From contig OY843768.1 in the NCBI GenBank assembly GCA_963693095.2, forward strand, positions 1,440,001 through 1,504,000: 64,000 nucleotides of DNA, in the 5' to 3' direction. The notes under the pieces were generated by a model. It searched no databases and was not told the origin of the DNA. It was given only the letters and a program-made list of their open reading frames with translations. The stretch comes from Cenarchaeum sp. (GTDB lineage Archaea > Thermoproteota > Nitrososphaeria > Nitrososphaerales > Nitrosopumilaceae). A program made the position numbers and the translations under genes. Of the stretch, positions 3,321-42,479 are shown one piece after another; positions within the stretch are counted from its first letter, which is position 1; every line of letters begins with the position of its first letter.

Positions 3321-5219
3321 CTAGTCCGAACCGGCGCGCTTGTCGAGTATGTTGCCGAGGCGCGTGACGTCACTGGGCACATAGAGATCAACGAGCCAGT
3401 CGATGGCCACGCGCAGGCGCTTCTCGGCGCTAGGAAGGCGCGAGAGGTAATAGTTGCGCCAGAGGAGCCAGGCGAGGACGCCCTTTAGCCTGATCCCAAA
3501 GAGGAGCGCAACGCCGTCACGCTTTCCGATCATCGCCATTGAACCGGCTGACTCGTAGTCAAAGCGCCGTGGCGCGCGCCCGCCCTTTAGCGCCGCAGTG
3601 ACGTTGTGTGCCGCAACAGACGCCTGGCGTATGGCGTTCTGCGCAGTCGGCGGGTACGGCCTGTCGGTTCGCGAGTCGATGAGGTGCGCACAGTCGCCTA
3701 GCGCATGGACCTCGGGGTGGCCGGCGAGCTGCAGCCACTCGTTGACCATGACGCGCCCGCCTGATCCGTGTTCTGCATCAAGGGACGCTATGACCGGCGA
3801 TGCCTTCACGCCGCCTGCCCAGACTGTGGTCATGCACGGTATGACCGTCCCGTCACTAAGCGTCGCCGAGTCAGGCTCGACTGAGGCGAGCTTTACGCCC
3901 CTTAGTATCTCGATTCCGCTCCGTGCCATTGCCTTCTCGGCATACTCGCCGAGGTCGCCGATCTCCGGCAGTATGCGGCCCGAGGAGACGAGGATGACCC
4001 TAATGGCGCCCGGCTCGATATTGCGATAATAGCGCTCGGCTGACTCGGTCACAAAGTCCTGGATCGCGCCGGCCGTCTCCACGCCAGAAAATCCGCCGCC
4101 GACTATGACAAACGTCGCCATGCGGGACTGCGCGTCCACGTCATCCTCCTGGTCTGCGCTCTCTAGCATCATGATTAGCCGGTTGCGCAGCGAGAGCGCA
4201 TCCTCTAGCGTCTTTATTGTGAGCGCGTTCTCCTCGACGCTCTTGTTTCCGTAATAGTTGGTCTCGCCTCCGAGTGCGAGGACGAGGTGGTCATAGTTCA
4301 TCTCGACGGCCTTGCCGTCCATCCTGCGCCTGATCGTTGCGGTTCGCGAGTCAAGGTCGATCGACTCGACGCTTGCGTGATAGTAGCGTGCGCGCCGGCA
4401 GAATGTCCTTATCGGCGTCGATATGTGGCGCGGCTCGACGTGACCCGTGGCCATCTCGGCGAGTAGCGGCGTGCTGAGGAAAAAGTTGTCCTCGCTGACT
4501 ATTGTGATGCCCGTGTCAACAGAGTCCTCAAACTCGCGCTGGAGCCGGCGCAGGACGCCAACTCCGGCATATCCGCCGCCGAGTATGAGGATGCGGCGCA
4601 GGAGTGGTGAGCCGCTCCCGTGCATGCGCGCCACGTGCTGCGCGTACGTCGCCCTCTTGGAGAACTCGATGTCACACCTGTGGCAGCGATAGTTGGCGCC
4701 AAATCGGCGCGTCAGTGCCGATGCGATGATTCCGACTGTGAGTCCCCATATTATGTGCGATATCGCCGAGTCCGTCAGGACCACGGCGGCGTCAAGCTGC
4801 GTGGCTGCCATCGAGGGCATGTCAGCGGCAAGACCCGCAGCAGCCGGATCTATGATTGCCATCGAGACGGGAATTGCAAAGGCGACGAGAACCGTGAGGC
4901 CCACGATGATTCCGTACGCGACACCGTTGCGAATGCGCGAGAGGCTTATCCCAAACACCCTATAGAGGACGACTCCGGCGACTATGCCGATCGAGGTCGC
5001 CACGAGCATGTGAAGCACGAGGCCGGCCAACGGCTCGCCAGAGCCGACTATGCGCGCGATGACGAGGAGGAGGCGCAAATAGTCGTTGCCCCCTATAGTC
5101 GTGGCGTATATCTGCGAGGCGTGCATGAGCATCGCGCCGGCTAGCGAGCCGGCCACGACAAAGGCGACCTCGCGGCGAAGCGAATAGTTGACGCGCGGCT
5201 CATCTAGCGTGCTGTGCAC
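3321..5219 (-). CDS. NAD(P)/FAD-dependent oxidoreductase (NDH-2 like) with N-terminal multi-TM domain and C2H2 zinc finger
   Basis: ILILGGGYAG, VIVGGGFSGVETAG, WAGGV, ALGDCA, PPTAQNA; CHRC-x12-H-x4-H finger; hydrophobic N-terminal helices. GTG start at 5219 chosen to avoid overlap with the opposite-strand gene. Confidence 0.85.
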   Translation of the reverse strand: MHSTLDEPRVNYSLRREVAFVVAGSLAGAMLMHASQIYATTIGGNDYLRLLLVIARIVGSGEPLAGLVLHMLVATSIGIVAGVVLYRVFGISLSRIRNGVAYGIIVGLTVLVAFAIPVSMAIIDPAAAGLAADMPSMAATQLDAAVVLTDSAISHIIWGLTVGIIASALTRRFGANYRCHRCDIEFSKRATYAQHVARMHGSGSPLLRRILILGGGYAGVGVLRRLQREFEDSVDTGITIVSEDNFFLSTPLLAEMATGHVEPRHISTPIRTFCRRARYYHASVESIDLDSRTATIRRRMDGKAVEMNYDHLVLALGGETNYYGNKSVEENALTIKTLEDALSLRNRLIMMLESADQEDDVDAQSRMATFVIVGGGFSGVETAGAIQDFVTESAERYYRNIEPGAIRVILVSSGRILPEIGDLGEYAEKAMARSGIEILRGVKLASVEPDSATLSDGTVIPCMTTVWAGGVKASPVIASLDAEHGSGGRVMVNEWLQLAGHPEVHALGDCAHLIDSRTDRPYPPTAQNAIRQASVAAHNVTAALKGGRAPRRFDYESAGSMAMIGKRDGVALLFGIRLKGVLAWLLWRNYYLSRLPSAEKRLRVAIDWLVDLYVPSDVTRLGNILDKRAGSD

Positions 5220-13684: not shown

Positions 13685-14253
13685 CACGTCGTGACGTTTC
13701 ACGCAAGCCCCCGCAATACCAGACAAAACCATCACACTTGCATGGCTCTTGTGGCATTCCATCGAGCCGGCAACTATTGACTAACGCAGCGCCTCGCACT
13801 CCAAATCTGCGTTAGTCCTGGCGCAGGACGTCAAGAACGCCATGGCAGTCTGTCTGTCTCTAGTCTTGCGCACATGCAAACTGCGCGCACGCGCTGCCGA
13901 GTCCACACCATGTGCAATGCCCCGCATGCGCGCCTTGAGCGGGCTCATCAGCACTACGGTGGGAGGCCCGCCCATTATAGGAGGACGCCATGGGGGCGGC
14001 CAAATCCGCACCTCCAATATGGGCACAGTAGGGGCACGACTGTCCTGATGCCCCCTCATGCCAGGGCACAGCAGGCAATGCCCACCGGCGCGCACTGCCC
14101 CCAGCGGCCACGGCGCGGCGCATGGAGCCATCAGCATGTCTGCGCCCCTCCATCACGACCCAGGTTGCGCCATGGGAGGAGGGACACGTGCCGAGCCATG
14201 GGCGTTTGCGCGCGTGTAACATTTTATAGCAGCGCAGCGGCGCGCCGGAGCGT

Positions 14254-14327
14254 GGGCCCGTAACTCAGCTTGGTAGAGTAACCGGCTCATAACCGGTGAG
14301 CCACGGGATCGAAGCCCATCGGGCCCA
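14254..14327 (+). tRNA. tRNA with CAT anticodon, probably tRNA-Ile2 (agmatidine type) rather than Met
   Basis: GGGCCCG/CGGGCCC acceptor with A discriminator (Ile-type GGGCCC start), ACCGG-ctCATaa-CCGGT; TATA TTTTATA at ~14222. Confidence 0.9.
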
Positions 14328-14337
14328 CCTTCGCTAG

Positions 14338-14345
14338 TTTTAAAG
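14338..14345 (+). promoter_or_regulatory. Putative TATA box for the box C/D sRNA
   Basis: TTTTAAAG 22-29 nt upstream of the sRNA terminal stem in GC-rich context. Confidence 0.55.
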
Positions 14346-14366
14346 CGAGTCTTGCGTGCGCGCGCA

Positions 14367-14436
14367 GTCGGCTGCGATGAGGAATCAGAGTTAACCTGAA
14401 CTGACTGATGAAAAGGCATTTGACCGAGCTGCCGAC
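14367..14436 (+). ncRNA. Box C/D methylation-guide sRNA (dual guide, 23S rRNA H69/H70-71)
   Basis: Terminal stem GTCGGCtGC/GCtGCCGAC; C ATGAGGA (14377), D' CTGA (14396), C' TGATGA (14406), D CCGA (14424); ~12-nt guides complementary to conserved LSU sequences UAACUCUGA and CAAAUGCCUU. Confidence 0.85.
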
Positions 14437-14438
14437 GA

Positions 14439-15041
14439 CTATGCGCGCGTGCGCGCGCGTATCTCGCCCATGACACCATCATCAATCCTGCCGCTCGAGT
14501 GGAGCGCATCGGCGAGCTCGAGTATGGTCGCGACGCTCCGGAGCTCGACGCCCTCGTTTCGCAGGGCGTCGCCGGCCCCCTCGAGGCGGTCAACGAGGAC
14601 GATTGCGCCGCTGACGCCGGCGCCGATCTCGCGAAGTGCGGCGACTGCGTGCAGGACAGAGCCTCCCGTCGTGGCGACATCATCAACAACTAGCACACGG
14701 TCGCCGGGTGACACAATGCCCTCGACGGCGCGCGAGGTTCCGTGGCCCTTTGCGGACTTGCGGACATAGGCTAGCGGCTTTGCGGACTCGATGGCCATGG
14801 CCGACGCAAAGACGAGGCCTCCGGTGGGGATGGAGGCAAGCGAGTCAAATGAGCCAAGGCCCCCGAGGGCCTCGATCTCCCCGAGGAGCGCGCCGACCAT
14901 GCGCCTGAACGCCACCGGCGAGGAGGGCACGGCACGCATGTCGACATAGTAGGGGCTCCTCTTGCCGCTAGAGAGCTCAAAGTCGCCAAACTTTAGCGCA
15001 CCGAGCCCATGGAGCGATTCGGCGAACTCTCTAGGCCTCAC
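14439..15041 (-). CDS. pyrE: Orotate phosphoribosyltransferase
   Basis: KFGDFELSSGKRSPYYVDMR, RK..KGHG, VVDDVATTGGS, VDRLEGA. Confidence 0.96.
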   Translation of the reverse strand: MRPREFAESLHGLGALKFGDFELSSGKRSPYYVDMRAVPSSPVAFRRMVGALLGEIEALGGLGSFDSLASIPTGGLVFASAMAIESAKPLAYVRKSAKGHGTSRAVEGIVSPGDRVLVVDDVATTGGSVLHAVAALREIGAGVSGAIVLVDRLEGAGDALRNEGVELRSVATILELADALHSSGRIDDGVMGEIRARTRA

Positions 15042-20037: not shown

Positions 20038-21486
20038 TTATTCTGTGATGGTAAATGAACGTGCCAATATTCTTGAATATGATATATAGTTAAGCAGATG
20101 AGGAAGATCATCAAAGAGATTTTTCCATAAGGGATTAGAAGGGTCAGCTTTTTGAAGGTTGTTAAAATGGTCAGATCTACGCAATATACCTTTGGTTGCT
20201 GGATCAAGCGAGTGTGTCGAACGAAGATCATTAATTTTTACCAGGTTAATCAGCTTGACAAGATCTGAAAAGAGATCAAAACGAAGATTATGTAAAGACA
20301 TATAGCTTAGTAATGCTGGTGGAATAATGTATACAAAGTCATCATGTTTATGCAATAGTGGGTTAAGTCCAGTAATCGATACGTCAAGACCATCTTGGTC
20401 AAATAGTTTGCTCCAAGACTCATCAAAAAATTCTTTATTTGATGATAAAATTGTAAATAGTTGCTGTTGTAAATCAGTAAGAGTGATTGATTCAATAAAT
20501 TTGAATGCATTCAGATTATTTAAATGAGTGTGAACAGCTATAGAGGTAAGAACTTTGAGATCAGAGAGCGAGGGTGTGCGCATAATTGAACCAAGTTTGC
20601 CAGCAATTACTAATAACGAATTTTTATTTTTAAATGCATGACGTCGAATAATAATACAATTGACGATATCGCCGGGTTCAAGCTCAGAAGCTAGTGGTTC
20701 AACAACAAATAAACGAGTGTTTAGAGAAGTGAATTTAGGAGGTTTAGAGAGAATTTTACCTTGAATTGCGCGATATTGAAACCGATCCTGTAAAAAATCA
20801 AATTGATGAACAGATGAATCAATTTTAACGATCTTTACTAGTGTTTTAAATACATCACATGTCTCAAGAAGTTCTGTGTAGCCATGATAAATAAAATTAT
20901 GGAAAGAATCATAGTCATTATTAATATCAGCAGCAGGCAATCGCCAATAAGAGTAAGTAAAACACTGATCAACTATTTTAGAATGAGTAATGTTTGGCCG
21001 TTCAATATTAGTAGCCCAATTTCTGAGAAGAAAATTCAAACTAGAAAATTGTGGCGGGATATTACGCTCAAATTTGAATCGTTCATACACATCAGAAACA
21101 AGAACACGCTGAGCAGAATTAGGAAAATATTCATGTATGCGTTTAGTTCCATGTAGATGCATCAATGTAAAATGGTTTAGATCTTGAACATATGTGGCAA
21201 GAAAAGCAGCTGGTGCGCGTGTATCAAAATAATGTATTTTACGACTAAGCAGGTTAAAAGATTGTGGAGAGAATAATGATAACGGTAATCTCAAGTTAAG
21301 CCGTATGCACGCATTATCTTTAACACTTTCAATACGCATATGTTCAATATCAGGAACTGAGCGAGAAGTAAGTTCTGCAATTCTTTGAGAAGAAACCAGA
21401 ATTAACTGTGTTAAAAATTTAGGATATGAAGGCTCAATAAGCTTTTCTAAAATTTGGATTTCTATATTTTCGCGAGATGGCATCAA
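20038..21486 (-). CDS. Uncharacterised 482-aa protein, last gene of the DISARM-like operon
   Basis: Long ORF in AT-rich DNA; its ATG overlaps the drmC stop (TGATG at 21485-21481); no family recognised. Confidence 0.8.
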   Translation of the reverse strand: MMPSRENIEIQILEKLIEPSYPKFLTQLILVSSQRIAELTSRSVPDIEHMRIESVKDNACIRLNLRLPLSLFSPQSFNLLSRKIHYFDTRAPAAFLATYVQDLNHFTLMHLHGTKRIHEYFPNSAQRVLVSDVYERFKFERNIPPQFSSLNFLLRNWATNIERPNITHSKIVDQCFTYSYWRLPAADINNDYDSFHNFIYHGYTELLETCDVFKTLVKIVKIDSSVHQFDFLQDRFQYRAIQGKILSKPPKFTSLNTRLFVVEPLASELEPGDIVNCIIIRRHAFKNKNSLLVIAGKLGSIMRTPSLSDLKVLTSIAVHTHLNNLNAFKFIESITLTDLQQQLFTILSSNKEFFDESWSKLFDQDGLDVSITGLNPLLHKHDDFVYIIPPALLSYMSLHNLRFDLFSDLVKLINLVKINDLRSTHSLDPATKGILRRSDHFNNLQKADPSNPLWKNLFDDLPHLLNYISYSRILARSFTITE

Positions 21487-21998
21487 AGATCATCTCCTTG
21501 TTTTATAGAACGCGCAAGCACATCCAACATATTAGCAATTTTGGAAACAGAATTTCCGTTAATTTTAAGCATAATTTCATAATTATAATTCATAGCATTT
21601 TTAGATATGTTAGGAGATCCTATCAACGCAAATTTTCTATCGATTACTATAATTTTAGCGTGAAGAGAACCATATTTGTGCTTTATTTGAAAGTTAAATA
21701 GATCAAAATTTGAAAATTTTTGAAAAGCAATCAATTTTTGTCTTGAAAAGTCTCCAATGGTTGATCCTTCCAAATCATTAACAATAAATTGAACATAACA
21801 ACCAGCATTAATTTGATCTTGAATAATATCAAAAAATGTTTTCATTTCAAAATTATCTCGGCCTAAAGAAAATGCCGAGATTTGTATGCTAGTCCGGGCT
21901 TGTTTTAGTGAATCAAAAACTGTGTCTACTATATTACTTGCTTCGTATCCTACCCATAATGCGCCAGATGCAGAAATTGAAGCAATCTCACGGGTCAA
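21483..21998 (-). CDS. drmC: Phospholipase D-family nuclease (DISARM DrmC-like)
   Basis: Single HKD motif LHAKIIVID followed by GSPN and NYE; directly downstream of DUF1998 gene. Confidence 0.85.
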   Translation of the reverse strand: MTREIASISASGALWVGYEASNIVDTVFDSLKQARTSIQISAFSLGRDNFEMKTFFDIIQDQINAGCYVQFIVNDLEGSTIGDFSRQKLIAFQKFSNFDLFNFQIKHKYGSLHAKIIVIDRKFALIGSPNISKNAMNYNYEIMLKINGNSVSKIANMLDVLARSIKQGDDL

Positions 21999-23944
21999 CG
22001 CTTAAGTGACTCCAAAAGAAGGTTACGATCTAAAAACTTGTTGTAAGAATCACATGATGTTTCAGAAACAAATAAGCAAGCATGACAAGCAGCACCATTA
22101 AACCGATTGTGGGTTTTCCGTCTATCAACACAAACAGGATCATTGGAACATATACGGATGTTATGATAAACATGGGATAGAATCTCTGAAAATGACGGAG
22201 CTAGGCTAATTAGACCCCCCAAGGTTCCGTCTCCCCCGGGCTGAGCTGTGTAAAGCAGAAGGCCAGATGTGTGTCGGCCAGACTCATCCTCATGACAATA
22301 AACACGCTCAGCAATACTTGCAGATGAAAATCCCGAACTGATTGCAAGCTGGTTAATGATTTTATGAGACAGCGCATGCCACCACACAAATCTAGGATTA
22401 GTTTTTCTTTTAGCTTCTAAACTTTTTTTAGACCAAGATTCATAGGTTGTGTTCCAAGCATCAAATGAGTCGTTTGAAGTATTTAGAACAGTGAGGGGGT
22501 CAAAGTTTATGTTTTTGTCAGAAGGGTCACATACTTGTATAAATAATCCTTCACCACGCAGTTGATGGCCAACAAACCACCTAGTATCATCTTCGTCATA
22601 GTAATTATAAATCAATTTACCCTGACGGTGGATGATTGGTATATTAGCATCATCCGAATCATCAAGTTCGTGTGTAACAACCTCACGCGAATATCCCAAT
22701 TGTACGCGGGTTAAATGTAATTGACGTATTGGAGAAATTCGGAAGTGGAGATTGAAATCCTCATGAAAGAAATCTATCGAATCAGTAGGTTCAATATGTA
22801 AACCAGTGAACGTACCATGTTTTTGGGGAGGAAAACCGTTTACGGTTGCATTAAGTAAATTGTTAAATTCATCATTAATCACGTTTTCAAAGTCAAATTC
22901 TGATTTATCAGATTGTTTTTTTGTCATATCTTCTGAAATTTTTGTAAGCGCATGTTTTATTTCATCCAATGTGGAAGTTTCAATAGCAGGTATAGGAAGA
23001 TTAGCATTGTATTTTTGATTAATTCGTTTACAATGATCAAGAAATTGCGTGTGTGTAAAATTAGGAGAGTTGTTGTGAAGAAATAGATCTAATGCCAATG
23101 GGTTTTCAGAGAGTATTCCAAGCTTACCAGGTACAGGAGGAATAGAAACGGCCAACATCAAGTCCACAACACGGATATTGCTAGAGTTTTTTAGTATAAG
23201 TTTAGAAGGTTCGCCACATGTTGAGATATTGTCTCTGGGAGGGTATTCTTGCATCACGCCAGAACATTGCAAAGTACCATTATCAGATTTTGACCGAAGT
23301 TCAAAGTACGAAACAGATTTATCACAATTTGTGCGCTGAAATGAACCATTTTCATAATAACCGTAACATCGAACAGTGAAATTATTATCACTATCAGATT
23401 CGTCCCATTCAAATACATCACCTAGGCATTCAAAGTGTCCACGATGAACCTCATATTTCCAATCAATGTCATCCAAATGACCGTTGTTACACGCCCTAAC
23501 AAATCGTACCGATGAACCTCTGTTTTTGTGACGTTTTGAAAGATTAGCATTGCTAGAACAGTTTGGACAGCGGATTTCAGCATGACCAGATATGTTTTGT
23601 AACTTAGACAATACAGGAGTTCCCGGATGGGCATTGCAAACAGACCAACGAGGAAATATGAAAGATCGAAACAAATATGTATTGTCGTCAGGGGTCAGAT
23701 CAGCGTTAGATGGCATTTGAAATATTTTAATAGCTTTTTTAGCAGGAAATTTTCTTTTTAGTATATTTTCCATATTAGAATCTTTAATGCAGAATGAATT
23801 TAATTGAAAATCAGGAAAACGACGAAAGTCGTCTATTATATTCAACAAAGACGGAATCACCACATAGCCACTTGCAATCGGAATCATCGATCCACTACCA
23901 TAGGTAGTAACATATTGTGATGGTCGTAATTGAACACTAGGCAT
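21995..23944 (-). CDS. drmB: DUF1998 helicase-associated protein (DISARM DrmB-like)
   Basis: LRPSQYVTTYGSGS, RFVRACNNGHLDD, GEGLF, HALSHKII, GTLGGL, CSNDPVC, ACHACLFVSETSC...LDR; ATG 23944 overlaps drmA stop by 8 nt. Confidence 0.9.
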   Translation of the reverse strand: MPSVQLRPSQYVTTYGSGSMIPIASGYVVIPSLLNIIDDFRRFPDFQLNSFCIKDSNMENILKRKFPAKKAIKIFQMPSNADLTPDDNTYLFRSFIFPRWSVCNAHPGTPVLSKLQNISGHAEIRCPNCSSNANLSKRHKNRGSSVRFVRACNNGHLDDIDWKYEVHRGHFECLGDVFEWDESDSDNNFTVRCYGYYENGSFQRTNCDKSVSYFELRSKSDNGTLQCSGVMQEYPPRDNISTCGEPSKLILKNSSNIRVVDLMLAVSIPPVPGKLGILSENPLALDLFLHNNSPNFTHTQFLDHCKRINQKYNANLPIPAIETSTLDEIKHALTKISEDMTKKQSDKSEFDFENVINDEFNNLLNATVNGFPPQKHGTFTGLHIEPTDSIDFFHEDFNLHFRISPIRQLHLTRVQLGYSREVVTHELDDSDDANIPIIHRQGKLIYNYYDEDDTRWFVGHQLRGEGLFIQVCDPSDKNINFDPLTVLNTSNDSFDAWNTTYESWSKKSLEAKRKTNPRFVWWHALSHKIINQLAISSGFSSASIAERVYCHEDESGRHTSGLLLYTAQPGGDGTLGGLISLAPSFSEILSHVYHNIRICSNDPVCVDRRKTHNRFNGAACHACLFVSETSCDSYNKFLDRNLLLESLKR

Positions 23945-26900
23945 CTGAAACAAACCCCCATTTTTCACCCATTGTGAATGTCGGCTCAACATCACGAAGT
24001 GAGTAATGCACATTTTTGTAAGCAGAAATTTTACCAGCCATTTGATGATGTTTTGTGCCGAGCACAACATGATTTTTTAGTTTAGCTCTAGTAGATTGAT
24101 TATAAATAAATTTATCGCCATAGTCTCTAGAAATCCGATTCGCACAACTGTTCCATATACAAATAGCGTCATTAAACAGCAGAGTAAACTCGTCAGAACT
24201 AACTGGCAAATCTGAATCAGGCGACAGATTGGAAAGAAGTGTTTTTGCAGAGTCAAATATTTGAGTTAGAGAAGTGCAAAGTGCAGTTATTTCATCATTT
24301 TTGTGATGTCCAATCATATAGTTAGGATTGTTTTGCCAATCAGCAGAAACAGGTTGTTGGGCAATGTGGCCAGCATTTCGTAGTATAGCCACAATTATTG
24401 GGCCAAGACATGTCTTTAACGCTTTTTCAGAAAATGGAGAGGCACTAATAGGTTCTACAAAACGGTTTATAGCTCTATGATACCCAACAAAATTTTCATA
24501 ATGACTAAGATCACGAACTCGTGTAGCACGCAGCCAAGTAATCACAAGTCCGGGATGTTTGCGTCCAATACGACCGGTTGATTGAATGTAGCTAGATGTG
24601 GATTTTGGCTGCCCCACAACAGTCATAAGTCCAAGTCTATCAATATCAATTCCTGTACCAAAAATAGAGGTAGTGAAAAGAGCATCAATTTTTCCAGGTT
24701 TTTCTAGATCTTCCATAGCTTTAGGGAGATCTAGAGATTTGACAGAGCTAGAAAGCTCAACAGCTTTTGTTTGATCTAAGTATCTATGAGAATAGTTTAA
24801 GCTGACCATTATAGATTCAGGAATTTTGCTTGTTTGTTCTACAGAACTAAAAACTATTTTATTATTTTTGATTTGAAATTTATTTGTGATGTGTGACTTT
24901 CGATCACTAGCACCACATTGAAAAGAGGTAGTTGATGAATAGTTGTGAATAGCAACCCACACGAGCGTTCCACGAGATGATGGAATTGGGGTTTCAAGCA
25001 ACAATTCATTTGCATTTTTATGACAACGCTTGACAAATTCATCTGTTGTGTTCGAAAGTAGTTTAGACGGAGTATCATCGATCGGATTATTGTCGTACAA
25101 GGCAACAGACATTTCGCCCGATTCGTTAGAGCAATAGATGGTAATGGAGACAAGGTCAGAGTCATGGGAAAGTAGAACAGGAATAAACCTCGTTCCCGGA
25201 TCGAATTGACTGTTGTCTAATCTGTGTGAGATTGAAAAGTCATTCTTTGAGCTCAATTTTTTAACATCACGTATAATATCAGAATTGTACAAATTGCGCG
25301 CAATGGCCAATTCACGAATTGCATTGAAGTATCCCACAAGTGTCCAATATGCATCAAGATTAGCAGGCATTGCCTGGGATTTTGGGGATTTATGAAGTCG
25401 GTAAATTGAACTAAGTAATGATGCATATATTCTCACCAACCCAAGTAGCATGCTTCTTGGGGCAAGTAGTCCAATATAAAGTCGTCCGGGAGTATCACAC
25501 GAACATGAAGGATCTTCGTCAATTTTGCTAAAATAATTATCGCCGTCACGTATACCCGGAGGCGGGAACACACGTGCAGTACGTCTGTAAACCACTGCAA
25601 CCTGACGTGAAGATTCTTTGATTGTAGCCGTAGATGCAATGTATTTAATTTTAGGAGTGCCCGGAGAAGAAAGTATATCAATAGCGATTTCGTAAAGGCC
25701 AACCATGCTTCCCAATGGGCCTTCAATAAGATGAAGCTCATCCTGTATAATTAATGACGGTGGATAAAAATTGGGCACAGGATCAGATAAACTATCGTCT
25801 TTGTACGTGCCAGCACGGTGAAATCCATCAAACATGTGATAAGTGTCAACATTGCCGAATATGGATGCTGCTTCGGGTTTAAATGCCAATTGGGCAAATT
25901 TGTCAGTAGTGGCAATTATAACTGTCGGGCAACGGCCATACACTTGTGGATCGATTGTAAAGGCCGAAATAGGAGTGCTAATCGACTTATTAGGATCATT
26001 TTGTGAAACAAACGGCTTGGCTATGAGCGTTTGACCACGAGGCATAGTTTTTTCAAACCAAGGGATCTCCCACGTTAAGCAATCGGGGTTTGGGCAGTGT
26101 ATAGAAAAATCAAATCGCTTATTAGAATTATTCTCATACAAAAAGAAATAGCCCGGTCGTGATGCACGAGTGCATTGGAGCGGAACACTGTATTTTGTAA
26201 GCTTAAGTGCCCGCATTATATCATCACGCCACCATTTATCTATATTGTCAGAAGAGAGATGGTTAGTACGAAAATGTACACGTAGAGCACAATAGGTACC
26301 GTGTTCATTAGTGTGAATACGAGAAAGAGATTTTGCTGGTGAGCCATCTTTTTTGCATATAATGTGCCCATTACCACAAAATTTTGAATTGTCTATTGAA
26401 TCGAATTCTTCAGACACCATATTGGTTTCTACAATCCAGGTAATAGTAAAAATTTCACGGTTTGTAATTTCTTTGTCAGAAATTGCCAATAATGATCCAC
26501 AACAAGGACACTTTGTAATTTGGGCAGGTTCGCCGCTATTCCCTCGACTAGTTCCAGGAGGAAGCGGAGATAGGGCGCCTTCAGCATTAAGGAAAGATCC
26601 AACTTGTTCAAACCGGTTAGGAGTTATATCACCGATCCACAATCCTAACGAAAAACGGTTTTGACCCCAGAGATTTTTTCGTGAATCTCTTTCGATCAAA
26701 TCTGGATCAGTAAATTCAACATTTCGAGGCAGCCAATGCTTGACTCTCAACATATCAGAGGCGAGGATTAATCCCAACGTCCTACTAAATTGCTGAATTG
26801 TCAAAAGTCGGAGAGTGTATCGAGATATGATAGAAACACCGCCATCTGTTTGAAAGTCTTTGTACGTAACAAGTCGGCGATAGGCAAAAGTAAACGCCAT

Positions 26901-28361
26901 AAGTCCAAGATACGCCTCTGTCTTTCCACCACCGGTTGGGAACCATAGAATGTCACAAAAATCTTTATCTTGTTTATTGTCTGGAATGAGACCCGGCAAT
27001 GTTTGTAAGATAAATGCTATTTGAAATGTATGCCAAGAAAAGTGTGCGTCATTATCGTTGCTATCCCATTGGTGTTTCATATGCATAGCCTCGTTCATAA
27101 AGCAAAATGCCAATCGTGCTTTTTCGTTACACAATAATAAATCAATCCCTTTTTGGATACGATCTGCACACTGATAACATTGTTCAATATTTTCATCAAG
27201 TAAATCATTTTTGGTAGAATAAGTTTCTTGTTGATCAGATATCCATTGTTTGTATTCTGTGACAATTGGTGTGAATGTAGAAGAGATAGAATTAACATCC
27301 CACAAGTCAGCAAGGCGATCTGCATTAAATCTGTCAGAATTACCTCGAATTTCAGGTTGGCGAACAACATACATTGGTAAATATTCGGTACGTATGTCAG
27401 AATTTTGAAATTTTTGAAGAACATCATCTGGCATTATTGATGATTGTGCATCAGGCCACATCATGGAGCAAAAATCTTGATTCGCGGAATCAGAAGCAGG
27501 ATCTATATCTTTCCACATAACCCCACACAGATGTCCACGACCTTTATTGGCCTTGTTTTGATATAAATAATCATTGTTTGTTTTATCGGCAAATGGTGTT
27601 CCAAGATCTTCAACGGATGAGTCAGAGCCGCATATAACGCGAATTTGTGGTTGAAAAATCGACAATACATTGTTTTGTCTTTTGTTGGGTTTGGTTCCAG
27701 AATATGGCGATTCGTTAACAAGAAATATAGATACATGCCATTTATTATTTTCAACGTAACGTGTATAGACATAAAGCTTTGCATCATTGCTTCCAATATT
27801 ATGAATAAATGAATTTGAAGGCAACAGAGGGGTAGCGATTTTAGAAACATCGATCAGGTCAGAAACCATCAGACTAGGGTGACGTTTGTATGTTCCCGGA
27901 GCATGGACTAGCTCGTATTTGCCCCACGTGCAACATATCTGAATTAGTGGCGGGGCACCTGCAACGACAAATGATAGACCCATTGAGTATGCACCCTGCA
28001 TTAGGTTAAGGTCAGAATCAACACTAATTTTATAGTCTGTTTCATCTGATTCAAAGTCGGAATCTCCATGATGTAAATTGTCGGGAAAATTTGCCTTTTC
28101 GTATGGATCGGGAGGGATGTTAAAATCAGGTTTGTCAGAAGAACGAAGACGGGGGTTAAGAATTCCCATGGTGTATTGAACTGATGGATTTTCGATTACC
28201 TCATCAGGTCCACATCTAGGTCCAAGCATATCTTCAAAAAGTGATTTGACCATATAGGTACGAGCTAAACCTGAGAATAGACTCTCTGTAGATGTAAAAT
28301 TAGAATTATTAGTTTCAGAATTTGAATGGTTGTCTGTATGCTCAGTGGTAGGTTGTGTCAA
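23937..28361 (-). CDS. drmA: SF2 helicase (DISARM DrmA-like), 1474 aa
   Basis: SMGLSF, FQPQI, FQIAFIL, WFPTGGGKTEAYLG, RYTLRLLTIQQFSR, TTDKFA, IQDELH, ASTAT, YFNAIREL, GIDIDRLGLM, YIQSTGRIGR, RDLSHYENF, SLRDVE. Confidence 0.92.
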   Translation of the reverse strand: MTQPTTEHTDNHSNSETNNSNFTSTESLFSGLARTYMVKSLFEDMLGPRCGPDEVIENPSVQYTMGILNPRLRSSDKPDFNIPPDPYEKANFPDNLHHGDSDFESDETDYKISVDSDLNLMQGAYSMGLSFVVAGAPPLIQICCTWGKYELVHAPGTYKRHPSLMVSDLIDVSKIATPLLPSNSFIHNIGSNDAKLYVYTRYVENNKWHVSIFLVNESPYSGTKPNKRQNNVLSIFQPQIRVICGSDSSVEDLGTPFADKTNNDYLYQNKANKGRGHLCGVMWKDIDPASDSANQDFCSMMWPDAQSSIMPDDVLQKFQNSDIRTEYLPMYVVRQPEIRGNSDRFNADRLADLWDVNSISSTFTPIVTEYKQWISDQQETYSTKNDLLDENIEQCYQCADRIQKGIDLLLCNEKARLAFCFMNEAMHMKHQWDSNDNDAHFSWHTFQIAFILQTLPGLIPDNKQDKDFCDILWFPTGGGKTEAYLGLMAFTFAYRRLVTYKDFQTDGGVSIISRYTLRLLTIQQFSRTLGLILASDMLRVKHWLPRNVEFTDPDLIERDSRKNLWGQNRFSLGLWIGDITPNRFEQVGSFLNAEGALSPLPPGTSRGNSGEPAQITKCPCCGSLLAISDKEITNREIFTITWIVETNMVSEEFDSIDNSKFCGNGHIICKKDGSPAKSLSRIHTNEHGTYCALRVHFRTNHLSSDNIDKWWRDDIMRALKLTKYSVPLQCTRASRPGYFFLYENNSNKRFDFSIHCPNPDCLTWEIPWFEKTMPRGQTLIAKPFVSQNDPNKSISTPISAFTIDPQVYGRCPTVIIATTDKFAQLAFKPEAASIFGNVDTYHMFDGFHRAGTYKDDSLSDPVPNFYPPSLIIQDELHLIEGPLGSMVGLYEIAIDILSSPGTPKIKYIASTATIKESSRQVAVVYRRTARVFPPPGIRDGDNYFSKIDEDPSCSCDTPGRLYIGLLAPRSMLLGLVRIYASLLSSIYRLHKSPKSQAMPANLDAYWTLVGYFNAIRELAIARNLYNSDIIRDVKKLSSKNDFSISHRLDNSQFDPGTRFIPVLLSHDSDLVSITIYCSNESGEMSVALYDNNPIDDTPSKLLSNTTDEFVKRCHKNANELLLETPIPSSRGTLVWVAIHNYSSTTSFQCGASDRKSHITNKFQIKNNKIVFSSVEQTSKIPESIMVSLNYSHRYLDQTKAVELSSSVKSLDLPKAMEDLEKPGKIDALFTTSIFGTGIDIDRLGLMTVVGQPKSTSSYIQSTGRIGRKHPGLVITWLRATRVRDLSHYENFVGYHRAINRFVEPISASPFSEKALKTCLGPIIVAILRNAGHIAQQPVSADWQNNPNYMIGHHKNDEITALCTSLTQIFDSAKTLLSNLSPDSDLPVSSDEFTLLFNDAICIWNSCANRISRDYGDKFIYNQSTRAKLKNHVVLGTKHHQMAGKISAYKNVHYSLRDVEPTFTMGEKWGFVSDA

Positions 28362-28413: not shown

Positions 28414-29436
28414 TTACCTCGTAGACTGTGCGCGTAGGGTTTTTCTGCGCGGGTGGCGAACAATCATTCGATGGGCAGTTATATGAGGCACCATATGTTT
28501 GGCTATTTCAGAGACTATTGGAGGAACCACCGCATTGCCTAATTGTCGGTATGCGTGAGAATCGGAGACGTGTAGCTTGAAGTTTTTGGGAAAACCCATG
28601 AGTAGAGCGCATTCTTTTGGTGTAAGTCGGCGCGGGTTTTTCCGTGATCCCTGGTAGACGAGGATTTCAGCCCCATCCTTGTAGTAGCGGGCACTCAGAG
28701 TTCTTGATGCACCGTCAAGGTCAGCCAAGCCATATCCAAACCCATTTCCTTTTTTTCGGTTTCTTTCTGCATGACGTTTCAGCGCAGACCACACGCCGTC
28801 AGTTAGCGTGTATTTTGCATCCGGTGAGCTGTCCAAGATTTTTTTGAGTTTGGGGCCTGATCCGGAAAATTGCGGAAATGCAAAGTTTGTGGGCTCGGCA
28901 AACCCAACCAAGAAAAGGCGCTCCCTGTGCTGGGGAACTGCGGATCGGGCATCAATTACCTCATGGCGTATATCATAACCGAGTTTTTTCAGCTCTTTTT
29001 CGATGATCATGAGCGTTCGACCCCCATCATGTGAACGGAGATTTTTGACATTCTCCAAGAGAAATGCCCGTGGACGTTTGGCTCGGAGTATACGGACGAT
29101 CTCAAAGAACAGGTCTCCCTGTGACGAGTCAGCAAACCCGTCAGGCCTGTTCATACTTCGCTTTTTGGACACGCCGGCCAGAGAGAACGGCTGGCAGGGA
29201 AAGCCCGCCACGAGCACATCATGATCGGGTATTTCAGAGGGCCGGATTTGGCGAATGTCCCCAGATGGAACATCCCCAAAATTAGACTCATAGGTGTTGC
29301 GGGAGTGCTCGTTCAGCTCGGAGGAAAAGACACACCGCCCACCGGCCTTTTCGAATGCCATACGCATTCCCCCAATTCCGGCAAATAGATCGATGAACGT
29401 GAATTTAGATCGCTGTCTGGTAGGCAATTCTGTCAA
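28414..29436 (-). CDS. drmMII: C5-cytosine DNA methyltransferase, Dcm/M.EcoRII-like (DISARM DrmMII-like; CCWGG predicted)
   Basis: FIDLFAGIGG, GFPCQPFSLAGVSKK, ENVKNL, QHRER, KYTLT, GNGFGYG, RTLSARYYKDGAEIL, QLGNAV. Confidence 0.9.
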   Translation of the reverse strand: MTELPTRQRSKFTFIDLFAGIGGMRMAFEKAGGRCVFSSELNEHSRNTYESNFGDVPSGDIRQIRPSEIPDHDVLVAGFPCQPFSLAGVSKKRSMNRPDGFADSSQGDLFFEIVRILRAKRPRAFLLENVKNLRSHDGGRTLMIIEKELKKLGYDIRHEVIDARSAVPQHRERLFLVGFAEPTNFAFPQFSGSGPKLKKILDSSPDAKYTLTDGVWSALKRHAERNRKKGNGFGYGLADLDGASRTLSARYYKDGAEILVYQGSRKNPRRLTPKECALLMGFPKNFKLHVSDSHAYRQLGNAVVPPIVSEIAKHMVPHITAHRMIVRHPRRKTLRAQSTR

Positions 29437-29480: not shown

Positions 29481-29647
29481 ACAGGCGTGCGAGAACAGGC
29501 GTGCGAGAACAGGCGTGCGAGAACAGGCGTGCGAGAACAGGCGTGCGAGAACAGGCGTGCGAGAACAGGCGTGCGAGAACAGGCGTGCGAGAACAGGCGT
29601 GCGAGAACAGGCGTGCGAGAACAGGCGTGCGAGAACAGGCGTGCGAG
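29481..29647. repeat. Perfect tandem repeat (ACAGGCGTGCGAGA) x ~12
   Basis: Read directly: 14-bp unit over 167 bp, last copy lacks its final A; no spacers. Confidence 0.97.
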
Positions 29648-33641: not shown

Positions 33642-36410
33642 CTATTTCCCGCTGTCGGCCCATCGCCCCAATGCGTCTCGCCGTTGCCCAATTGCGCGAA
33701 CCACGAGTAGCGGCGTGGCGACGGCGATGACGGCGATGAGTGGGGCGGCGAGCTCGGCATAGGACACCTCGGTGGATGACGACGGCGCATCGCGCAGGAC
33801 AGTCGATGCGAGCGCAGATATCTCGACGACCCCTATGCGTGCGGCCCCCGGCGCGGCATACCAGATGTTTCCCTCCGAGTCGACTGCGGTAAACTGGGCC
33901 TGCGCTCTCGGCGTCGGGAGCGCGACGCTGACGAGCTCGCCAGAGGCGTCGTTGTGAAGCCCAAGCGCATCGACTGTGTGCTGCGCAAACCACGCGTTGC
34001 GGTGCCTGTCAAAGGAGACCGAGTTGGGCAGCGCGCCTGCGTCAGTGGCCATGACACGCGTAAATGTTCCAAGGAGCGGATCAAGGCGCGCAACGCCCCC
34101 TCCCTCGGTGTGCTCAGAAACCCAGAGCCCGCCGTGCGGCCCGAACGTGAGCGTCTCGGCGGTTCGCAGGGGCGGGTCGGGGGCAAACTCGACGATCTCG
34201 CCGCTTGCCATGTCAATGCGGCCGACCTTGCCTCCGGTCAGCTCGGCAAACCACATCCCGCCGCGCGGTCCCTCGGCGAGGCCAAACGGCCGCGACTCGG
34301 GCGTCGGCGAAGCATGCGCGATGAACTCGCGCGTTGCCGGATCGTGCTCGAGGACCGCGTTCCAGTTGGGCACGCTCACCCAGACAGTGCCGTCGCGCGC
34401 AGCATGTATCCACGTCGGCGTGGCTCGCAAGCCGTCAGGCCCGAGGCCGTCGGGAATCGCAGTTGTGCCTATCGCGCGCGTCTGCGCGTCGATCGACCCA
34501 ATGAGGGCTGACCGGCTGTCGGCAAACCAGACCGTCCGGTCATCGCCCACGCTAACGATCAGCGATCCGGTTCCCTCAAACTCGTGCGCGGCAAACTCGC
34601 CGGTCTGGCGATCCAGGCTCCAGACGCGCGGCATCGACGGGTCGCTGATCCAGACCGTCTGGCCGTCGTGTGCGAGATGGAGCGGAACTGCGCCGTCTGG
34701 CATTACATGCTCGGTTATCTCTATACCGAGCTCGGAGGCCAGGGGTCGCGCAAAGGCGCCGATGCGAACCGACTCGTTTGCCGCACCAGACCGGATCGCC
34801 TCGACGTCAATGTCCCACGCGCCCCAGAACCCAAGGGTGAGCTCGCCGGTGTGCACGCCGCCGTCGTCCTCGACCTTGACCTCGATGGGTGCGATCGCGC
34901 GCTGAGGGCTAGAGACCTTTACGCGAACCTCCTCGAGGTCATCGAGTGGCTCGCCGTCGGTGCCCGTGACGCCCACGCTGATCGTGTTGGGGCCGGCGGC
35001 GAGCGGCCAGAGCGAGACGCCAAAGGCCGCGCGCGCCGAGAACTCGGTCACCTCAAGGCCAACGGGCGCCGGCGGGGCATAGTCTGTGGCCTCGCCTCCC
35101 GGAAGTGTCGTGTTGGTGAGGAGCGCCACGGCTGCCAGGAGGGCCACGCCGAGGGTCGCCTCTAGGCGCAGGGAGCGCGTGAGGCGCACGACGGCGCGCC
35201 GGGCCCCGCGCGCGATGACTGACGAGTTGTATGCGCCGATTGCCACCATGGTCGCGGCGATGGCGATCTTTGCGGCGAGGATCGCCCCGTATGTGGAGCC
35301 CACGATGGCCATGACGCTGTCCTCAAGGAGCCACATCAGCAGCGGTCCGGTTATGGCCGCCACGCCGACGCACGTGACAAATATTGCCGAGAGCGTCGGT
35401 ATGGCCACCAGTGCGGCCTCGTCGGCCCGCTCGCCGAGGCGCCTGAGGGCAGGCATGACGGCGAGGAGGAGGTATGCGACGCCCCCAATCCAGACACCGG
35501 CGATCACATTGTGCGCATAGTCTAGCACAGCAGCTCCCTCACTGCTCGCCGAGCCGTGCCCGACCATAGTCATCGTGGCCGCAAGGGCCATGCCGAGTGC
35601 CGCAAAGGCCGCAATCCACGGCCTGCTCGGGCCCCCTCGCCGCTCGGCGACAAACCATACGGCAAGCAGTGCCACAGTTATCGCCATCCTTGCGGCAATC
35701 GTGCCGCCAAACGTCGTGCCCAGCGCGTCGATGACTGAGGCCTCGAGGCGAAACGACTGCGCGGCGAGCATGAAAACGTTGGAGGCCAGGACCATGATCG
35801 CACCGGCGCCGACTAGCATCATAAAGCGCGAGTGATGAACCGACTCGGCCTCGCGCGCAATGCCCAGCGCACGCCATGTCGTGGCGGTGATGAGCATCGC
35901 GACGGCAGCCCCGATAATGACGCTCTGCCCGATGAGTCCGGGCAGGCGCGCTGCGGCCTCTGGAAGAAAGACCTGTGCGGTGGGCGCGACGGACTCGGCG
36001 GCGGCCGCATCGATCGTGGCGCCGCCGACTGCAAAGATGAACGCGCCGCCGACGAGGTGTCCGTCAACTCGCGACAGGACGCTGCTAGCAACGGTGTAAA
36101 CACCGTCATCTAGCGGCGACGTCGTGACCCTCAGGGACACGTCGCCCTCGTGGTATGCCGTGTCCCCATTGTCAACCCTGCTGCCGGCCGAGTCGTACAC
36201 CTTGAGCGAGCTAAAGTCGAGCTCGACTCCCTCAGAGTACCACACCGTCACGTGATCGGTGCCCAGCGGGGCACTAGAGAGGCGCTGCGGCATCGTCTCC
36301 TCGATGAACGGGTGTGCCCATGCCGACGGGGACATGACGGTGAGGATGGCGAGTGCGGCCAGCGCAATGACTGCCCTGTGAACCATGCGTCGGCACGCGA
36401 GATCAGGCAA
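33642..36410 (-). CDS. CopC/CopD copper-binding fusion protein with Vgb-like beta-propeller and C-terminal TM
   Basis: Signal peptide then AH-P (His1 CopC), VLSRVDGH; CopD TM region (GH, HNVIAGVWIGG, STYGAILAAK, EATLG); repeated G-x-W-F/V propeller blades. Confidence 0.87.
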   Translation of the reverse strand: MPDLACRRMVHRAVIALAALAILTVMSPSAWAHPFIEETMPQRLSSAPLGTDHVTVWYSEGVELDFSSLKVYDSAGSRVDNGDTAYHEGDVSLRVTTSPLDDGVYTVASSVLSRVDGHLVGGAFIFAVGGATIDAAAAESVAPTAQVFLPEAAARLPGLIGQSVIIGAAVAMLITATTWRALGIAREAESVHHSRFMMLVGAGAIMVLASNVFMLAAQSFRLEASVIDALGTTFGGTIAARMAITVALLAVWFVAERRGGPSRPWIAAFAALGMALAATMTMVGHGSASSEGAAVLDYAHNVIAGVWIGGVAYLLLAVMPALRRLGERADEAALVAIPTLSAIFVTCVGVAAITGPLLMWLLEDSVMAIVGSTYGAILAAKIAIAATMVAIGAYNSSVIARGARRAVVRLTRSLRLEATLGVALLAAVALLTNTTLPGGEATDYAPPAPVGLEVTEFSARAAFGVSLWPLAAGPNTISVGVTGTDGEPLDDLEEVRVKVSSPQRAIAPIEVKVEDDGGVHTGELTLGFWGAWDIDVEAIRSGAANESVRIGAFARPLASELGIEITEHVMPDGAVPLHLAHDGQTVWISDPSMPRVWSLDRQTGEFAAHEFEGTGSLIVSVGDDRTVWFADSRSALIGSIDAQTRAIGTTAIPDGLGPDGLRATPTWIHAARDGTVWVSVPNWNAVLEHDPATREFIAHASPTPESRPFGLAEGPRGGMWFAELTGGKVGRIDMASGEIVEFAPDPPLRTAETLTFGPHGGLWVSEHTEGGGVARLDPLLGTFTRVMATDAGALPNSVSFDRHRNAWFAQHTVDALGLHNDASGELVSVALPTPRAQAQFTAVDSEGNIWYAAPGAARIGVVEISALASTVLRDAPSSSTEVSYAELAAPLIAVIAVATPLLVVRAIGQRRDALGRWADSGK

Positions 36411-41290: not shown

Positions 41291-41626
41291 ATGGAGGGCA
41301 TTGTGCTCAACATTGGCGGGAGCGAGTGGGTTCTCATCGCGTTCGTCGCGCTCATCGTTCTCCTTGGAACGAACAGGCTGCCCGGCGTGGCGCGCCGGCT
41401 CGGAAAGCTAGCCGGCGAGTATGACAAGGCCAAAACGGAGATCCGCGGCCACGCCGAGGGCATGGGCGGCATGAGGCCCACGGCGGCAATGGGCACAGAG
41501 GCCGAAAAGCTTGACGCAATGGCCGCAACACTTGGCATAAAGCGCAACGGGCGGACTGATGAGGAGATGCGCAGGCTCATCTCCGAGGGCGTCGGCGGCA
41601 AGGCCGGTGGCAAGGCCGACGCCTAG
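41291..41626 (+). CDS. tatA: Twin-arginine translocase TatA/TatB family subunit
   Basis: IGGSEWVLIAFVALIVLLG..RLP..AR.LGK...EY.KA. Confidence 0.85.
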   Translation: MEGIVLNIGGSEWVLIAFVALIVLLGTNRLPGVARRLGKLAGEYDKAKTEIRGHAEGMGGMRPTAAMGTEAEKLDAMAATLGIKRNGRTDEEMRRLISEGVGGKAGGKADA

Positions 41627-42399
41627 GGCAGGTACTTGCCAGACTCTAGTCTGCCCTTTGCAAACTCGTAATACTCGGGGGCAACCTCAAAGCCGACATA
41701 GCGCCTCTTCATCAGGTTTGCAATGACTGCGACCTGCCCCGAGCCGAGGAACGGATCCATGACCACATCACCCTCGATGCTAGAGTGCTCGAGCATCTTT
41801 TCGACTAGCTCGCGCGGGAGCTTTGTTGGCGTCTTTTGCCTGCCCGTCCAGTATTCGCGCTTTATCTCCCACACGTCCTCCTTGTCGCGATAGTGCGCGC
41901 TGTGCCCGTCATCAGTCCGGTCACGCGGCCCGAATCGCGCAAATGGGTAAAAGCGGCGCCTTGATGCGCTTTTGCAGACATAGAGGCAGTGATAGTGCGA
42001 CGTGACGAACTTTTTTCTTGTGACTACGCCAAACTGGTACTTCCATATGATATGGTTTATCGTCACAAACCCCGTCTCATCGAGCGCAGTCAGCACGTCC
42101 TTTAGCCTGTTCCATCCCGAAAAGACGTACATGCTTGCAGTGTCGGCCATGACGCGGTGCGCCTGCTCCATCCATGACCGCGTAAAGCCCAGATAGTCAG
42201 CCGCGCTGATCTCGCTGTATCCCCTCATCACGCGCGAGTCGGTCCTGTTATAGTTGGCTCGCGATGGCGCAAAGTCTATCGCAAACGGCGGATCCGTGAT
42301 CACAAGGTCAACGCACGAGTCGGGCAGCCCTGCCATTCCGCGGACGCACTCAATGTTACGGATATGGGACTTGATTGCGGCGTGCGAGCGACGTGCCAT
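41623..42399 (-). CDS. Orphan N4-C/N6-A DNA methyltransferase (beta class)
   Basis: VDLVITDPPF precedes IIWK, PTKLP.EL and MDPFLGSG; no adjacent endonuclease. Confidence 0.9.
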   Translation of the reverse strand: MARRSHAAIKSHIRNIECVRGMAGLPDSCVDLVITDPPFAIDFAPSRANYNRTDSRVMRGYSEISAADYLGFTRSWMEQAHRVMADTASMYVFSGWNRLKDVLTALDETGFVTINHIIWKYQFGVVTRKKFVTSHYHCLYVCKSASRRRFYPFARFGPRDRTDDGHSAHYRDKEDVWEIKREYWTGRQKTPTKLPRELVEKMLEHSSIEGDVVMDPFLGSGQVAVIANLMKRRYVGFEVAPEYYEFAKGRLESGKYLP

Positions 42400-42479
42400 G
42401 CGTGGCGTGCGGGCGGCGTGCGCTATATCAACTAGGCGCGGACATCGTGCCTTTCCGCCTTTTCTTTCCGGGATCGCGC

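Follow-up and report, generated by a model that had tools for sequence, protein, structure and literature searches.

The window considered here is a stretch of 64,000 nucleotides (nt) from Cenarchaeum sp. (assembly GCA_963693095.2, contig OY843768.1, forward-strand positions 1,440,001 to 1,504,000; coordinates below are those of the window), which carries a DISARM defence cassette whose last gene belongs to an unannotated protein family. The cassette occupies an island of 9.4 kb (approximately 20.0 to 29.4 kb) with a GC content of 31 to 50%, embedded in an archaeal genome of about 62% GC, and consists of five co-directional genes, specifying DrmMII, DrmA, DrmB, DrmC and an unnamed protein of 481 amino acids (aa), the gene for which lies directly after drmC and is referred to here, as a shorthand, as gene X. 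The system itself is known; the gene X family represents its new, unannotated part. The five genes, in cassette order, are as follows.

28414 to 29436, minus strand: drmMII, the first cassette gene, encoding a C5 cytosine DNA methyltransferase (PADLOC DrmMII, 3.2e-150; Pfam DNA_methylase, 7.8e-85).
23937 to 28361, minus strand: drmA, encoding a superfamily 2 (SF2) helicase of 1474 aa when counted from the first possible start (PADLOC DrmA, E=0; Pfam Helicase_C).
21995 to 23944, minus strand: drmB, encoding a DUF1998/MZB protein of 649 aa, as in P0054 (the longest reading frame reaches 24070; PADLOC DrmB, 6.3e-133; Pfam MZB).
21483 to 21998, minus strand: drmC, encoding a short, single-HKD phospholipase D (PLD) nuclease of 171 aa (PADLOC DrmC, 4.8e-27; Pfam PLDc_2, 1.7e-15).
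20038 to 21483, minus strand: gene X, with its stop codon at 20038 to 20040, the last of the five cassette genes, whose family is unannotated and has approximately 46 representatives.

The HxK..D..GSxN residues of DrmC are invariant across a 23-row alignment, and neither DrmE (or DrmE_C) nor DrmD was detected among the five island proteins by PADLOC or Pfam.

The longest open reading frame (ORF) of gene X spans positions 20038 to 21486 on the minus strand and corresponds to 482 aa when counted from a TTG codon. An ATG is located at positions 21483 to 21481, one codon inside this TTG start, and its A is the last base of the TGA stop codon of drmC, thus producing the overlap TGATG (minus-strand text ...CTTTGATGCC...). 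Because the downstream ATG shares this base with the drmC stop codon, the product of gene X is likely 481 aa in length, and the protein collection holds an identical 481-aa protein (P0001). An earlier reading of the DNA made from its letters alone (hereafter the sequence-only reading) had pointed to the coupling with drmC and to an AT-rich composition common to the two genes, and both observations are borne out: gene X has a GC content of 33.8% (GC at third codon positions [GC3], 0.22) and drmC one of 30.8%, against 62 to 64% (GC3, 0.73 to 0.76) for the flanking host genes. That reading had recognised no nuclease or ATPase motif in gene X, which is consistent with the outcome of profile searches, in which the protein matched no family in Pfam, PADLOC or PHROGs at E≤0.1 and none in NCBIfam at E≤0.001.

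A word-indexed search of 5.8 billion clusters retrieved eight homologues of about full length, seven of which share 42 to 45% identity with the gene X protein over 88 to 99% of its length and one of which shares 26%. An exhaustive HMMER search of 1.84 billion representatives returned, at E≤0.001, the query and 45 other proteins, and of these 46, 31 reached E≤1e-10 and 10 reached E≤1e-30. Members of the HMMER set are mostly 450 to 500 aa in length, the longest having 558 aa, and long fused forms do not occur in it. In an alignment of 37 family sequences, residues Y98, N103, W180, K213 and P375 are invariant, and S148, N150, F175 and P183 are nearly so. The gene X copies of two of the loci described below (L029 and L040) are 85% identical, with a ratio of nonsynonymous to synonymous substitution rates (dN/dS) of 0.05, the corresponding values being 0.06 for DrmB and 0.12 for DrmC; these ratios are approximate, with dS being near saturation. 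Gene X is under purifying selection. Since it possesses homologues, exhibits this low dN/dS and specifies a confidently predicted fold, it is a real gene rather than a chance ORF. The ESM Atlas held no usable match to the protein, a tblastn search of plasmid and phage collections returned no match, and a scan of species-representative genomes with the pattern of the family alignment yielded 12 stretches that fitted the pattern, none of which was a relative.

In order to place gene X among DISARM systems, species-representative genomes were scanned with a DrmB alignment, which resulted in 79 loci with DrmB relatives, and the gene X family profile was run over all six-frame ORFs of these loci. 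In addition to the window, 4 of the 79 loci harbor a family member, all of them belonging to Nitrososphaerota.

L001, Nitrosopumilus: DrmB locus with gene X.
L019, Ca. Nitrosomirales: DrmB locus with gene X.
L029, Nitrosopumilus: DrmB locus with gene X.
L040, Nitrososphaerota: DrmB locus with gene X.

Each of these four reference loci carries drmA, drmB, drmC and gene X in that order and on one strand, and the drmC-gene X junctions of all five loci lie between an overlap of 4 nt and a gap of approximately 7 nt. The proposal of the sequence-only reading that gene X is an additional DISARM gene coupled to drmC thus extends to the window and the four reference loci, where it is always found directly after drmC. 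A C5 methyltransferase gene is present in all four reference loci; it is located before drmA in the window and in L001, upstream in L019, and after gene X in L029 and L040, which places gene X inside the cassette in the latter two. No DrmE_C or DrmD-like gene was apparent in the scanned flanks of L001, L019 and L029, and L040 consists of the cassette only.

In a quick IQ-TREE phylogeny of DrmB (75 rows, the partial DrmB sequences of L003, L049, L053, L076 and L078 being left out), the five gene X systems make up one side of a branch with an SH-like approximate likelihood ratio test (SH-aLRT) value of 99; the distribution of gene X on this tree requires a single state change, a number not reached by any of 500 shuffles. 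Other AT-rich Nitrososphaerota DrmB sequences flagged for unusual composition (L015, L042, L044 and L061) group elsewhere, in another clade. When pairs of systems are ranked by the identity of their gene X proteins, the order is that obtained with DrmA, DrmB and DrmC, across identities from 85% down to 21%, but the gene X values are lower for distant pairs; between the window and L001, identity is 34% for the gene X protein and 48 to 49% for DrmA, DrmB and DrmC. Four of the eight close gene X homologues and four close DrmB homologues, moreover, are listed with equal longest-contig sizes (11047, 17866, 10536 and 10727), which suggests that these genes reside on the same contigs. Gene X is co-inherited with one clade of DrmA, DrmB and DrmC, and its family sets apart a branch of class-2-type cassettes that is mainly thaumarchaeal.

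These data bear directly on the view that gene X is a passenger which merely travels with the cassette; it could, for example, be a small defence or anti-defence gene that acts independently. Such a passenger would be in keeping with the varied contents of the position after drmC in other DrmB loci and with the frequent accumulation of unrelated genes in defence islands. Against this stand the overlap or near-abutment of the drmC stop and gene X start in five of five loci, the co-divergence with DrmA, DrmB and DrmC across identities from 85% down to 21%, the internal position of gene X in L029 and L040, and the grouping of the associated DrmB proteins in one clade; a passenger status is, consequently, regarded as very unlikely.

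An AlphaFold2 model of the gene X protein, built with the 37-row alignment, obtained a pLDDT of 90.0 and a pTM of 0.92. According to this model, the protein is predicted with high confidence to begin with a helical hairpin, to continue with two basic beta-barrels that have a helix between them, and to end in a C-terminal domain that is helical, these parts being distributed as follows.

Residues 7 to 41 (21361 to 21465, minus strand): N-terminal helical hairpin of the AlphaFold2 model (helices 7-19 and 21-41), with a median family isoelectric point (pI) of 6.1.
Residues 45 to 160 (21004 to 21351, minus strand): first predicted beta-rich domain (strands within 46-153), with invariant Y98 and N103 and a near-invariant S147/S148/N150 motif.
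Residues 161 to 195 (20899 to 21003, minus strand): predicted connecting helix (165-177) and loop, containing W180, which is invariant, and F175 and P183, which are nearly so.
Residues 196 to 300 (20584 to 20898, minus strand): second predicted beta-rich domain (elements up to 296), with invariant K213.
Residues 301 to 481 (20041 to 20583, minus strand): helical C-terminal domain of the AlphaFold2 model (elements within 306-474), including a strand at 331-334 and a hairpin at 377-380 and 383-386.

The elements of the second barrel (residues 205 to 296) are arranged in the order of three strands, a short helix and two strands, as in the oligonucleotide/oligosaccharide-binding (OB) fold. Across the 37 aligned members both barrels are basic (median pI 9.1 and net charge +4 for the first, pI 9.3 and net charge +5 for the second), while the helical parts at either end of the protein are close to neutral. 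When the model was compared with PDB structures using Foldseek, one match attained E≤1e-3 and the others extended to E-values of about 4e-2, the lowest values being those of 3udg_A (9.8e-4) and 8aaj_A (1.1e-3), which are of the two-OB single-stranded DNA-binding protein (SSB)/RPA type. Among the 42 PDB matches listed, at least 39 are proteins which we take to be OB-fold nucleic-acid binders; those listed include the two-OB SSBs of Deinococcus radiodurans and Thermus, RPA, the HIN-200 proteins p202, IFI16 and AIM2, Teb1, CST, RADX, Cdc13, LEF-3, the telomere end-binding protein (TEBP) of Oxytricha and N-terminal domains of MCM, and two are RNA polymerase subunits (probability 0.06). A comparable search of the viral BFVD collection returned LEF-3, phage SSBs and DUF669 proteins, with one match at E≤1e-3. 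In the C-terminal domain, DSSP assigned helix 306-323, strand 331-334, helices 335-348, 355-360 and 363-372, and strands 377-380 and 383-386, and the predicted order of elements across residues 306 to 386 is compatible with a winged helix.

On the basis of the synteny, the charge distribution and the predicted fold, it is proposed, with a probability of roughly one in two, that the product of gene X is an accessory subunit which would bind DNA without being catalytic, and that it works in a compact DISARM system of class-2 type consisting of drmMII, drmA, drmB, drmC and gene X. DrmAB has been reported to bind single-stranded DNA (ssDNA) and DNA with 5' overhangs and to be auto-inhibited by a trigger loop (PMC9142583, 10.1101/2021.12.28.474362), and DrmC does not co-purify with DrmAB (PMC9142583). 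In the envisaged mechanism, the two barrels would bind DNA, most likely ssDNA which is either recognised by DrmAB (5' overhangs) or generated by unwinding, while the C-terminal domain would dock the gene X protein to another DISARM subunit. The protein could then hold or present the foreign strand, for instance to the co-translated PLD nuclease DrmC; alternatively, it might stabilise DrmAB on its substrate. The gene X protein may thus act as an ssDNA sensor or loader, the function which the sequence-only reading had put forward. Co-folding of DrmC with the gene X protein gave a score of 0.00, classed as "no answer", which speaks neither for nor against binding. The roles of accessory DISARM subunits are described as open (PMC9142583).

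Several observations weigh against this proposal. The Foldseek matches are weak as fold matches, with TM-scores of 0.11 to 0.21 normalised by the query and at most 0.41 by the target and root mean square deviations (rmsd) of 8 to 19 Å, and although such values would be expected for multi-domain proteins whose domains differ in orientation, they allow a predicted assignment at the level of fold type only. The term "OB fold" as used here accordingly rests on the homogeneity of the match list and on the order of elements rather than on close structural superposition. The two barrels exhibit no detectable sequence similarity to each other or to the C-terminal domain, and the dissimilarity of the barrels to one another is unfavourable. 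OB folds also act as protein-protein modules, and DNA binding by gene X is a prediction. When the 37 aligned members were searched against PADLOC and Pfam at E≤1, nothing consistent emerged, any weak Pfam family being matched by at most one of the 37, and a sequence-profile search of the PDB returned a best E-value of 0.65, to unrelated proteins, with no profile link to SSB, RPA or HIN. Synteny with drmC was observed in only five loci, and four of the five DrmB rows in the gene X clade were flagged for unusual composition, such that attraction is possible in what is a quick tree. Finally, DrmC is dispensable in the DISARM systems studied (PMC9142583, 10.1101/2021.12.28.474362), for which reason a role centred on DrmC may be secondary.

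The claims of the sequence-only reading regarding structure fared accordingly. It had described a central stretch, here residues ~215 to 296, as OB-fold-like and had suggested that AlphaFold and Foldseek be applied; the stretch indeed falls inside the second predicted barrel, and a confident model with a nearly uniform tandem-OB match list was obtained, but the E-values are marginal and the TM-scores low, so that what stands is a resemblance in fold type. The helix-helix-hairpin pattern which it had noted after this stretch is present in the model, where it may correspond to a winged helix.

The composition of the Foldseek list also raises the alternative of a HIN-200-like sensor or scaffold for duplex DNA, in which the barrels would bind the backbone of double-stranded DNA (dsDNA) and mark or tether the incoming duplex for DrmAB. 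HIN-200 domains (p202, p204, p205, IFI16, AIM2 and MNDA) obtained the top Foldseek probabilities (0.91 to 1.00) and the best target-normalised TM-scores (0.36 to 0.41), several of these structures were solved with dsDNA, and their barrel-helix-barrel layout is the same as that predicted for the gene X protein, both barrels of which are basic. Their E-values, however, lie between 1.8e-3 and 3.6e-2 with an rmsd of 8 to 9 Å, the lowest E-values belong to two-OB SSBs and RPA, and the Pfam HIN family was matched by none of the 37 members; on balance, this alternative is judged unlikely. In vitro, DrmAB itself fails to bind dsDNA (PMC9142583), a property which is neutral with respect to an accessory subunit.

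The same match list, together with the coupling to drmC, accommodates a further alternative, namely, that gene X specifies a regulator or adaptor which binds protein and not DNA, in the manner of RPA32/RPA14 or Stn1-Ten1, and which could either restrain DrmAB or DrmC until infection or assemble the complex. RPA and CST, both of which are among the Foldseek matches, make protein contacts through OB folds and winged helices, no catalytic motif or family was found in the gene X protein, and its tight translational coupling to drmC in five of five loci would fit stoichiometric co-production. The basic charge of both barrels across the 37 members, in contrast, fits nucleic-acid binding better, and we consider a purely protein-binding role to be a rather improbable explanation when set beside the proposed DNA-binding accessory subunit.

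A bolder extension of the latter proposal is that the gene X family constitutes a prokaryotic counterpart of the tandem-OB DNA sensors of HIN-200/RPA type, which would recognise foreign ends or exposed strands and license DrmAB and DrmC in archaeal DISARM systems that do not possess DrmE. This must be viewed as a long shot; if true, gene X would represent a new, required specificity component and would hint at a possible evolutionary connection of archaeal defence with the sensing of cytosolic DNA in eukaryotes.

The relationship between gene X and DrmE requires separate consideration, as the sequence-only reading had suggested that gene X replaces DrmE. In Bacillus class-2 DISARM, deletion of drmA, drmB or drmE abolishes protection (10.1101/2021.12.28.474362, citing Ofir et al. 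2018). DrmE is present in 3 of the 79 DrmB loci (L068, L075 and L077), where it directly follows drmC (PADLOC DrmE, Pfam DrmE_C), and no further DrmE came to light when 70 large ORFs on the same strand near DrmAB were scanned with Pfam. An AlphaFold2 model of DrmE (L075, 12353 to 14740; also encoded by L068 and L077), a protein to which the sources consulted assign no fold, was of moderate confidence (pLDDT 76.7) and yielded 145 PDB matches at E≤1e-3, led by RIG-I, MDA5, LGP2 and XPB and also including Dicer-2; in this model, DrmE looks like a two-RecA, SF2 helicase-like core to which the DrmE_C region is added.

Could gene X, then, be a DrmE that has been truncated or has diverged strongly? 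In favour of this, gene X fills the accessory place in a DISARM of class-2 type from which DrmE is absent, and DrmE, too, sits after drmC in its three loci. However, PADLOC DrmE and Pfam DrmE_C (PF24957) matched neither the window protein (E≤0.1) nor any of the 37 members (E≤1), hhalign of the gene X family profile against a 12-sequence DrmE profile gave a probability of 0.08% and against three single DrmE sequences gave nothing, the DrmE model adopts a helicase fold and not a tandem-OB one, and the lengths differ (481 aa for gene X, approximately 790 aa for DrmE). The candidate was rejected, and a DrmE origin of gene X is regarded as extremely improbable. What remains of the suggested replacement is the position: none of the five cassettes contains DrmE or DrmD, and gene X is found in the accessory place. 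Given the absence of homology and the resemblance of the DrmE model to RIG-I-like SF2 helicases, a like-for-like functional replacement is not indicated, and it is unlikely that gene X performs the task of DrmE in the same way.

No description of gene X was found in the DISARM literature searched. A survey of the YprA family mentions "many uncharacterized DISARM-like classes" (10.1101/2025.09.15.676423), and the term "OB-fold" does not occur in the available portion of its supplements (PMC12458937), which list DISARM-like helicases in Nitrosopumilus. As the manner in which DISARM recognises and disposes of foreign DNA is unsettled, the small, well-folding and DNA-binder-like product of gene X offers a tractable handle on the step from sensing to restriction. 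The family also indicates that class-2-type DISARM has alternative accessory modules which are missed by PADLOC, Pfam, NCBIfam and PHROGs, and the five-gene cassette of ~9.4 kb is small and evidently able to move between archaea whose GC contents differ widely.

With regard to the surroundings of the cassette, the island has the pyrB region on one side and, on the other, the gene for a very large protein that looks secreted. The following feature lies at its edge.

29481 to 29647, no strand assigned: perfect tandem repeat of a 14-nt unit (11.9 copies) at the boundary between island and host, 45 nt upstream of the start of drmMII.

The repeat unit has 12 matches with ≤1 mismatch, a number reached by 0 of 100 shuffles, and its GC content is host-like; possible interpretations of the array are a scar left at the junction, a promoter element and a switch prone to slippage. 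Neither att-like flanking direct repeats nor tRNA genes were found at the island edges, and no Rfam family was detected between 19000 and 30500. The host part of the window encodes an archaeal proteasome alpha subunit (8.8e-84) and an archaeal GdhA. It is best explained that the cassette was acquired horizontally by this high-GC archaeon and that it moves as a unit among Nitrososphaerota-like archaea. With a GC content of 50.5% (GC3, 0.50), drmMII is intermediate between the other four island genes (31 to 39%; GC3, 0.20 to 0.29) and the host (62 to 64%); its product shares 54% identity with the methylase of L001, which agrees with the other genes of the cassette. The L001 cassette is flanked by inverted insertion sequence (IS) copies with DDE transposase ORFs (3508 to 4290 and 14116 to 14897), whose arms are 96 to 97% complementary and 9.8 kb apart, an arrangement which looks like a composite transposon. 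Metagenome contigs with the closest DrmB and gene X homologues are mostly 8 to 11 kb in length, which would fit assembly breaks at such repeats.

Two host-encoded proteins outside the island were also noted, namely, a CcrM-like N6/N4 DNA methyltransferase (5.9e-31; 41623 to 42825, minus strand) and a 922-aa protein (33642 to 36410, minus strand) in which CopC- and CopD-like copper-homeostasis regions are fused with a Vgb-like beta-propeller region, an unusual fusion.

Among the other DrmB loci, the slot after drmC is occupied by a C5 methylase in seven (L002, L003, L006, L020, L042, L045 and L050) and by DrmE in three, and elsewhere (L025, L007, L070, L035 and others) by a PIN protein, a CHAT/EAD2/bacterial death-like protein, REase-ARP, an MzaE-like protein or unmatched, mutually unrelated proteins. 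The gene X profile obtained hhalign probabilities of ≤0.3% against 18 other unannotated post-drmC proteins, and BLAST among the post-drmC proteins detected relatedness only within the DrmE trio and the L001/L029 pair. In 12 DrmB loci (L012, L024, L028, L033, L036, L050, L057, L060, L066, L067, L071 and L072), a protein of ~690 to 770 aa with two GHKL ATPase domains (HATPase_c_3 N-terminal and HATPase_c C-terminal) is encoded adjoining drmA, mostly just upstream of it; this double-GHKL protein looks like another accessory module of DISARM-like systems.

Compared with known systems, the window cassette resembles class 2 DISARM in possessing DrmA, DrmB, DrmC and a C5 methyltransferase, with drmA and drmB adjacent and drmC located after drmB. 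Class 2 is described as comprising DrmA, DrmB, DrmC, DrmMII and, "on occasion", DrmE (10.1101/2021.12.28.474362). The window cassette differs in lacking DrmE and in harboring the conserved, unannotated gene X after drmC, and the position of the methyltransferase gene varies among its relatives, being first in the window and L001 and after gene X in L029 and L040. Gene X and DrmE are alike as accessory genes of class 2 DISARM with no assigned function; they differ in that the DrmE model is SF2 helicase-like and the gene X model tandem-OB-like, and they share no sequence or profile similarity.

With the two-OB SSBs of the Deinococcus-Thermus group and with RPA, the gene X protein shares two predicted barrels per chain, a basic surface and the best Foldseek E-values. 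It differs from these in its lack of a sequence family match, in its low TM-scores, in the addition of an N-terminal hairpin and a 180-residue helical C-terminal domain, and in being encoded within a defence cassette, whereas SSB and RPA are housekeeping proteins. The likeness to the HIN-200 proteins AIM2, IFI16 and p202 lies in the predicted layout of two OB-type barrels with a helix-containing linker between them and in a context of innate immunity; the HIN proteins matched, however, are those of mouse and human, the gene X family has no Pfam HIN match, and the likeness could simply reflect the general geometry of tandem OB folds. A parallel in organisation is provided by DruH of Druantia III, a non-catalytic partner with no assigned role which stands beside a DrmAB-like, ssDNA-sensing helicase (10.64898/2026.05.13.724758). 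DruH is a ten-domain protein that includes Ig/Fn3-like domains (10.64898/2026.05.13.724758), whereas the gene X protein is predicted to employ barrels of the OB type.

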